This document shows positions 440-482 of a stretch of DNA of 1,176 nt, in pieces (position 1 is the stretch's first letter; every line of letters begins with the position of its first letter). This stretch comes from a phage: sequence record OR846245.1; one strand, given 5' to 3'. The translations under genes were made by a program, and so were the position numbers. The notes beneath the pieces were generated by a model. That model was not told where the DNA came from and ran no database searches. It saw only the letters and a list, made by a program, of their open reading frames with translations.

Positions 440-482
440 TAAAGTTTTAAATGATAATGATTGTTAATCAGTAAAAATGCAA
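438..482 (-). promoter_or_regulatory. Candidate sigma70 promoter region for yqjH; two alternative -35/-10 assignments
   Basis: Reading the minus strand, option A is TTAACA (462..467), an 18-bp spacer, then TTTAAT (438..443). Option B is TTGCAT (477..482), a 17-bp spacer, then CATTAT (454..459). Both overlap the Fur-box-like site. The sequence alone cannot choose between them. Confidence 0.3.
452..470. promoter_or_regulatory. Fur-box-like site (TGATAATGATTGTTAATCA)
   Basis: Positions 453..461 (GATAATGAT) match the first 9 nt of the canonical 19-bp Fur consensus GATAATGATAATCATTATC exactly. The flanking heptamers TGATAAT and TTAATCA form an imperfect inverted repeat. The site overlaps the candidate yqjH promoter, and E. 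coli yqjH is known to be Fur-repressed. Confidence 0.45.

Follow-up and report, generated by a model that had tools for sequence, protein, structure and literature searches.

The sequence at positions 450..468 of the analysed DNA, a window of 1,176 nt from the phage sequence record OR846245.1 to which all coordinates refer, is most probably (probability about 0.93) the Fur operator of the nfeF (yqjH) promoter of a Salmonella-like enterobacterium, at which a single Fur dimer would occlude the promoter and the repressor NfeR (YqjI) would act as a further brake. Within this reading, we infer the promoter and its start site, the single-dimer stoichiometry and the occlusion mechanism. As a Fur site the sequence is already known, since the identical sequence was predicted in E. 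coli in 2007 and the same sequence in S. Typhimurium in 2011.

The nfeF/nfeR locus

The window comprises the 5′ part of nfeF and the divergent nfeR (Table 1), separated by an intergenic region of 231 bp with a G+C content of 28%. The encoded NfeF fragment is 79% identical to K-12 NfeF over 134 amino acids and matches the siderophore-interacting FAD-binding domain of Pfam (PF08021, E 1.7e-35), and the encoded NfeR is 71% identical to K-12 NfeR and matches the PadR domain (Pfam PF03551, E 3.8e-14). Among 185,579 species genomes, the closest loci were those of Salmonella arizonae and S. diarizonae (96% and 95% protein identity, respectively); over all 1176 bases, the DNA identity was 93% to S. 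diarizonae and 90% to S. arizonae. A search of Rfam found no structured RNA in the window.

Two further observations concern the genes themselves. Residues 1-55 of NfeR (window 635..800) form a His/Cys-rich N-terminal extension unlike that of K-12, with many substitutions and an extra EHRHGHGC segment that faces an 8-residue gap in the K-12 row of the alignment; the PadR domain is well conserved. When complete E. coli genomes were searched with megablast, the sole matches to the window were to a 75%-identical acquired copy in 16 genomes, including AW1.7, from which we conclude that the window is not E. coli DNA. These carry an extra nfeF/nfeR-like pair (for example E. coli O15:H12 2273-PO3, NZ_CP061749.1 4025678-4029428), in which the PadR gene is frameshifted and which is adjoined by an ISL3-like ISPpu12 transposase. 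The pair was apparently gained by horizontal transfer as a second copy, and it differs from the native b3070/b3071.

Table 1. Features of the nfeF/nfeR locus in the 1,176-nt window; promoter elements are predicted.
Feature	Position	Strand	Sequence and remarks
nfeF (yqjH), 5′ part	1..403	-	NADPH-dependent ferric-chelate reductase gene; start codon 403..401
NfeR operator-like repeat, nfeF-proximal	422..441		AATACGATATATCTAAATTA; downstream of the predicted nfeF start (~447)
Fur operator, 9-1-9 register	450..468		AATGATAATGATTGTTAAT; centre G459; 20.40 bits with the 17-site matrix
7-1-7 core of the Fur operator	452..466		TGATAAT-G-ATTGTTA
Predicted -10 of nfeF	454..459	-	CATTAT, inside the left Fur half-site; invariant in 82/82 sequences
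Predicted -35 of nfeF	477..482	-	TTGCAT; 17-bp spacer to CATTAT
NfeR operator, nfeR-proximal	594..624		Inverted repeat ATTTAGATATA / TATATCTAAAT around the palindrome TTAGATATATCTAA
nfeR (yqjI)	635..1176	+	PadR-family repressor with His/Cys-rich N-terminus; runs past the window end

Register and strength of the Fur site

The initial annotation had described a Fur-box-like sequence with GATAATGAT at 453..461 and a 19-mer, TGATAATGATTGTTAATCA, at 452..470, to which it attributed an imperfect 7-1-7-like symmetry. Both strings are present in the window as given, and the symmetry is real: the arms of 452..466 are complementary at five of seven positions and match TGATAATnATTATCA at 12 of 14. Read as a 9-1-9 inverted repeat (tGATAATnATTATCa), the sequence agrees with this architecture at nine of nine positions in the left half and at six of nine in the right half. 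The classical 19-bp consensus GATAATGATAATCATTATC is matched at 13 of 19 positions at 453..471 and likewise at 447..465, and the best register (450..468) falls between the two. According to the discussion of the work of Baichoo and Helmann in PMC2189734, the classical 19-mer represents two overlapping 7-1-7 inverted repeats located 6 bp apart.

Scores were calculated with a symmetric Fur matrix of our own, built from 17 footprinted or gel-shifted Fur sites of E. coli K-12, the 19-mers of which resemble AATGATAATnATTATCATT. The centres of these sites were derived from the coordinates in Table 4 of Chen et al. 2007 (PMC2189734), taking the strongest site per cluster, and the old coordinates were mapped onto NC_000913.3, where all 17 agree with the stated distances to the gene starts. 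Because the sites are the strongest ones per cluster according to Chen's model, the matrix is not fully independent of that model. In a leave-one-out analysis the 17 verified sites scored 17.1-28.2 bits (mean 21.7), a range that includes the window site, and the runner-up position in the window reached 6.15 bits. Measured against the local AT-rich composition, the site still scored 14.4 bits. The scoring with a Fur weight matrix that had been proposed as a check on the box therefore came out in its favour, with 20.40 bits, a value comparable to those of footprinted or gel-shifted sites and well clear of the genome background.

This background also bears on whether the site could be a chance match without function in an AT-rich intergenic region, a reading that we find hardly credible. 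The 28% G+C speaks for it, as do the shuffled sequences, in which the best score averaged 6.4 bits and occasionally exceeded 20 bits. At least 20.4 bits was nevertheless reached in just 21 of 20,000 dinucleotide-preserving shuffles of the 231-bp intergenic region (a frequency of about 0.001), and at one of 385,317 positions in 80 related genomic loci from which the nfeF upstream region was excluded. Moreover, all 80 species compared have the site at the same position, and 13-14 bases are invariant where the rest of the intergenic DNA has diverged. The sole background position above 15 bits, AATGCTATTTATTATCATT (22.2 bits), is located in Escherichia albertii about 1.3 kb from nfeF (L077 1212..1230) and may be a true Fur site of a neighbouring gene.

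One part of the initial annotation did not stand, namely that the downstream half is degenerate and the binding strength consequently uncertain. This was an effect of the register: the downstream half looked degenerate because the classical 19-mer register was used, the centre really being G459, and in the 9-1-9 register the sequence scores like footprinted sites. The registers given earlier score poorly as single-dimer sites, with -3.77 bits for 453..471 and less than -3.67 bits for 452..470 (centre 461), which is outside the 15 best positions of the window. The overlapping sites 6 bp to either side of the Fur operator are weak (0.8 and -4.75 bits), and the sequence looks like one strong 7-1-7 site for a single Fur dimer, not like two overlapping ones. 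The apparent weakness of the downstream half is explained by the presence of a single 7-1-7 site, the left half of which doubles as the predicted -10 hexamer. The sole costly base of the site is the non-consensus G463, at a cost of 4.2 bits. This base is conserved in most of the 80 species, being A in some Enterobacter and T in Scandinavium, and makes no extended -10. Judged by sequence match, the feature at 450..468 is confirmed as a genuine and strong Fur site.

Conservation across enterobacteria and the nfeF promoter

The comparison covered 80 species from more than 20 genera (Salmonella, Citrobacter, Escherichia, Enterobacter, Klebsiella, Kosakonia, Leclercia, Lelliottia and others). The best Fur-like site was always located 48-68 bp upstream of the start of the nfeF protein match, with scores ranging from 10.3 to 25.6 bits. 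AATGATAATGATT was invariant in 78 of the 80 species, and the right half varied, its commonest form being GCTAAT. When the first 130 bp upstream were aligned, the conserved blocks were an operator-like GATATATCTAAAT (at about 424..441), the box itself (449..462) and ATGCAA (477..482).

For the promoter, an ungapped stack of 82 sequences anchored on the Fur box was compared. Besides the invariant -10 hexamer (Table 1), the hexamer located 17 bp upstream of it reads TTGCAA or TTGCAT in 60 and TTGnnn in 76 of the 82 sequences. From this pattern we infer that transcription of nfeF is driven by TTGCAT-17 bp-CATTAT and begins near 447, relative to which the Fur 19-mer would span about -21 to -3. The placement of the box over the putative yqjH promoter, as the initial annotation had it, is in agreement with this: the site covers the predicted -10 and spacer, and the -35 is conserved at a distance of 17 bp. 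The overlap with the core promoter that characterises a Fur box is hence found here on a predicted promoter. The promoter scan tool did not call the nfeF promoter, which matches at 8 of 12 positions where the tool requires 9, and its one hit (minus strand, 546..518) is within chance expectation. A literature search found no transcription start for nfeF, and the gene is without an entry in a Salmonella promoter data set.

A perfect 9-nt inverted repeat, TTTTTGATA / TATCAAAAA, is present at 487..495 and 558..566, with 62 nt between its arms. The left arm, which immediately precedes the predicted nfeF -35, shows partial conservation between species (CTTTTTTGATA), and the tract may be UP-element-like.

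Conservation of this kind could also be expected if the block were nothing but the nfeF core promoter (-10 and discriminator), with the likeness to a Fur box arising as a by-product of AT-richness and Fur being inactive at it. CATTAT is indeed invariant at 17 bp from a conserved TTG hexamer, and conservation is highest in the half of the box containing the -10, with drift in the other half. Since the 14 invariant bases include the -10 hexamer, the promoter rather than Fur accounts for some of the conservation. We nevertheless consider such a reading very unlikely, because the bases flanking the hexamer, 449..453 and 460..462, are invariant as well, and because a -10 hexamer alone cannot give 20.4 bits, a score that few of the shuffled sequences reached. 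In addition, the identical E. coli sequence is centred in a Fur ChIP-exo peak that is restricted to iron-replete cells, and yqjH is derepressed in fur mutants (see below). With a Fur operator laid over the promoter, which is the reading we prefer, the asymmetric conservation would follow from the right half being needed by Fur alone and the left half by RNA polymerase as well.

Some of the compared loci differ in other respects. In many Enterobacter and Leclercia species (for example at the loci L038, L050 and L064) only 73 bp separate the Fur box from the next operator-like palindrome, versus about 160 bp in most genera, which points to a different intergenic architecture, though the anchor may have caught another copy of the operator. 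A record titled Chryseobacterium sp. 18061 (CACSKA010000008.1) holds, on a 300-kb contig, an enterobacterial nfeF locus with 79% protein identity and the same Fur box; this assembly is probably mislabelled or contaminated.

Fur and NfeR control in E. coli, Salmonella and the window

The nfeF gene of E. coli K-12 (yqjH, b3070) is preceded by an identical stretch of 22 bp, AAATGATAATGATTGTTAATCA (6541..6562 of the K-12 locus, L002, corresponding to window 449..470). The centre of the Fur site is located 59 bp from the nfeF ATG in K-12 and 56 bp in the window, and both have the divergent nfeR and the NfeR operators in common. Chen et al. 2007 (PMC2189734) predicted a Fur cluster at K-12 yqjH with 19.9 bits at position -59, which maps onto the central G of the site identical to that of the window. 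Gao et al. 2023 (PMC10164565, Dataset 2) reported a Fur ChIP-exo peak (P96, MG1655 3214555-3214587) that was found in iron-replete cells only and was assigned to yqjH, and PMC10164565 places P96 also in the earlier data of Seo et al. The midpoint of P96 is at most 1 bp from the Chen coordinate 3214572 (the central G), and the peak corresponds to about 442..474 of the window. For E. coli, iron-dependent occupancy of the orthologous site by Fur in vivo has accordingly been observed, with P96 centred on the identical 19-mer. A Fur peak at yqjH was present in W3110 too. Furthermore, yqjH is gene 33 in the 36-gene core Fur regulon of nine E. coli strains, and deletion of fur in nine E. coli strains increased its expression by a log2 value of 1.6-4.2.

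The K-12 locus differs from the window in several ways. Its neighbouring Fur site at +10 scores 10.4 bits, versus 6.1 bits in the window, and this overlapping site is better in K-12 because of a downstream CATGATAAAT. K-12 also has a second Fur-like site, TTTAAAAATCATTTTTACA (11.7 bits; L002 6698..6716, corresponding to about 546..577 of the window), just upstream of the nfeR -35 and under the iron-replete ChIP-exo peak P97 (3214718-3214751; PMC10164565). Sites of 11.5-11.9 bits at this second position were found in Escherichia loci only, and the window scores 2.9-6.1 bits there. A conserved second Fur site at nfeR was for this reason rejected as a candidate, being confined to Escherichia, and direct Fur control of nfeR may therefore be Escherichia-specific. 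The nfeF-nfeR spacer measures 287 bp in K-12 versus 231 bp in the window. Within the K-12 spacer (L002 6600..6690), a G+C-rich palindromic GCCGGATGCGGCGTGAACGCCTTATCCGGCCTAC resembles a REP element and has no counterpart in the window.

Evidence from Salmonella agrees with that from E. coli. In S. Typhimurium, a fur mutant expressed STM3214 (yqjH) at a 3.8-fold higher level (Troxell et al. 2011, PMC3212961, supplementary file 2), and the same study predicted a Fur site, TAAATGATAATGATTGTT, on the reverse strand. This predicted site is equal to window 448..465, and its listed position (-113..-96) fits the geometry of the window if the +50 end of the scanned region is taken as the origin; the register of the 18-bp matrix of Troxell is 2 bp left of the 9-1-9 centre. 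Table 4 of PMC3212961 lists earlier evidence of Fur regulation for the gene, and gives published Fur binding as "No". In S. Enteritidis, iron restriction in egg white induced yqjH, which was classed as Fe-Fur repressed. The dependence of the downstream gene on Fur and iron is in this way documented in the literature for E. coli, S. Typhimurium and S. Enteritidis. The modest 3.8-fold derepression in the Salmonella fur mutant is what would be expected if NfeR still represses.

Two operator-like elements lie within the intergenic region, at 422..441 and 594..624, and we take them to be the NfeR (YqjI) operators reported by the Outten laboratory. According to citing papers, these operators were reportedly described by Wang et al. 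in 2011 and 2014. AATACGATATATCTAAAT at 422..439 recurs at 605..622, where it is part of the inverted repeat 594..604 / 612..622. The element at 422..441 repeats the motif of 594..624 in both direct and inverted orientation, and its GATATAT and CTAAAT show conservation between species. Deleting nfeR in K. pneumoniae raised nfeF 85-fold, and NfeR is therefore the dominant brake, which explains the modest effect of a fur mutation alone.

The likely nfeR promoter was read by eye on the plus strand as TTGCTA (579..584), a 16-nt spacer and TATAAA (601..606). The promoter scan tool did not call it. The inverted repeat at 594..624 overlies its -10 and start, and K-12 has TTGCAA, 16 nt and TATAAA at the same place.

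Another protein besides Fur could still bind the box. That a different regulator binds it instead of Fur, whether NfeR through an extension of its operator, PepA or another metal regulator, seems to us extremely unlikely. In favour of it, the end of the nfeF-proximal NfeR operator, at 441, is about 8 bp from the box, and PepA has a single genomic SELEX peak in the nfeF/nfeR spacer of E. coli. The NfeR motif (ATATATCTAAAT / ATTTAGATAT), however, is found at 422..441 and 594..624 and no copy of it overlaps 450..468, for which reason the idea that the Fur box is part of an NfeR operator was rejected. The PepA peak is not resolved to the box sequence, and it is Fur that is favoured by the matrix score, by the Fur ChIP-exo peak and by the results from fur mutants.

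With Fur as the ligand of the box, regulation at nfeF would proceed as follows. When iron is sufficient, one Fe2+-Fur dimer would bind the 7-1-7 core, centred on G459, and the bound Fur would cover the -10 (459..454) and half of the 17-bp spacer below the -35 (482..477), so that RNA polymerase would be excluded. When iron is scarce, Fur would leave, and nfeF would become transcribable if the second repressor, NfeR, whose presumed operator is located just downstream of the Fur site, were released as well. The initial annotation had proposed dual control of the reductase gene by Fur (iron) and YqjI, and this proposal is supported by the Fur box adjoining NfeR operators and by the derepression of yqjH in fur mutants of E. 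coli and S. Typhimurium.

With the classical multi-dimer Fur boxes (for example entC/fepB, fecI, iucA and cirA) the window site shares the half-site AATGATAAT and the overlap with the core promoter of an iron-acquisition gene. The classical boxes consist of two to many strong overlapping sites 6 bp apart, whereas the window has one strong 7-1-7 site and, unlike them, the operator of a second, unrelated repressor (NfeR) directly downstream.

As a discovery the site carries little weight, since it is an ordinary feature already documented for E. coli and Salmonella: publications from 2003-2011 onwards describe Fur control of yqjH/nfeF, and Fur occupancy of the E. coli site has been reported by ChIP-exo. 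Its value is one of annotation, as the operator can be fixed at 450..468, the site is strong by its score, and the left half of a single 7-1-7 site would also be the -10 hexamer. A broader idea, which we put forward tentatively and at less than even odds, is that nfeF has a composite operator, the left half of which is locked as the -10 (13-14 invariant bases in 80 species) and the right half of which is free to drift within the spacer. Lineages could then tune the affinity for Fur over 10-25 bits without changing promoter strength, and Escherichia alone would have added a second Fur site at the nfeR promoter, leaving the nfeR of Salmonella-like genomes outside direct Fur control, with iron acting solely via the nfeF site. 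On the preferred reading of the box as a Fur operator, the reductase gene integrates an iron signal, conveyed by Fur, and a nickel/iron signal, conveyed by NfeR, at adjacent operators.
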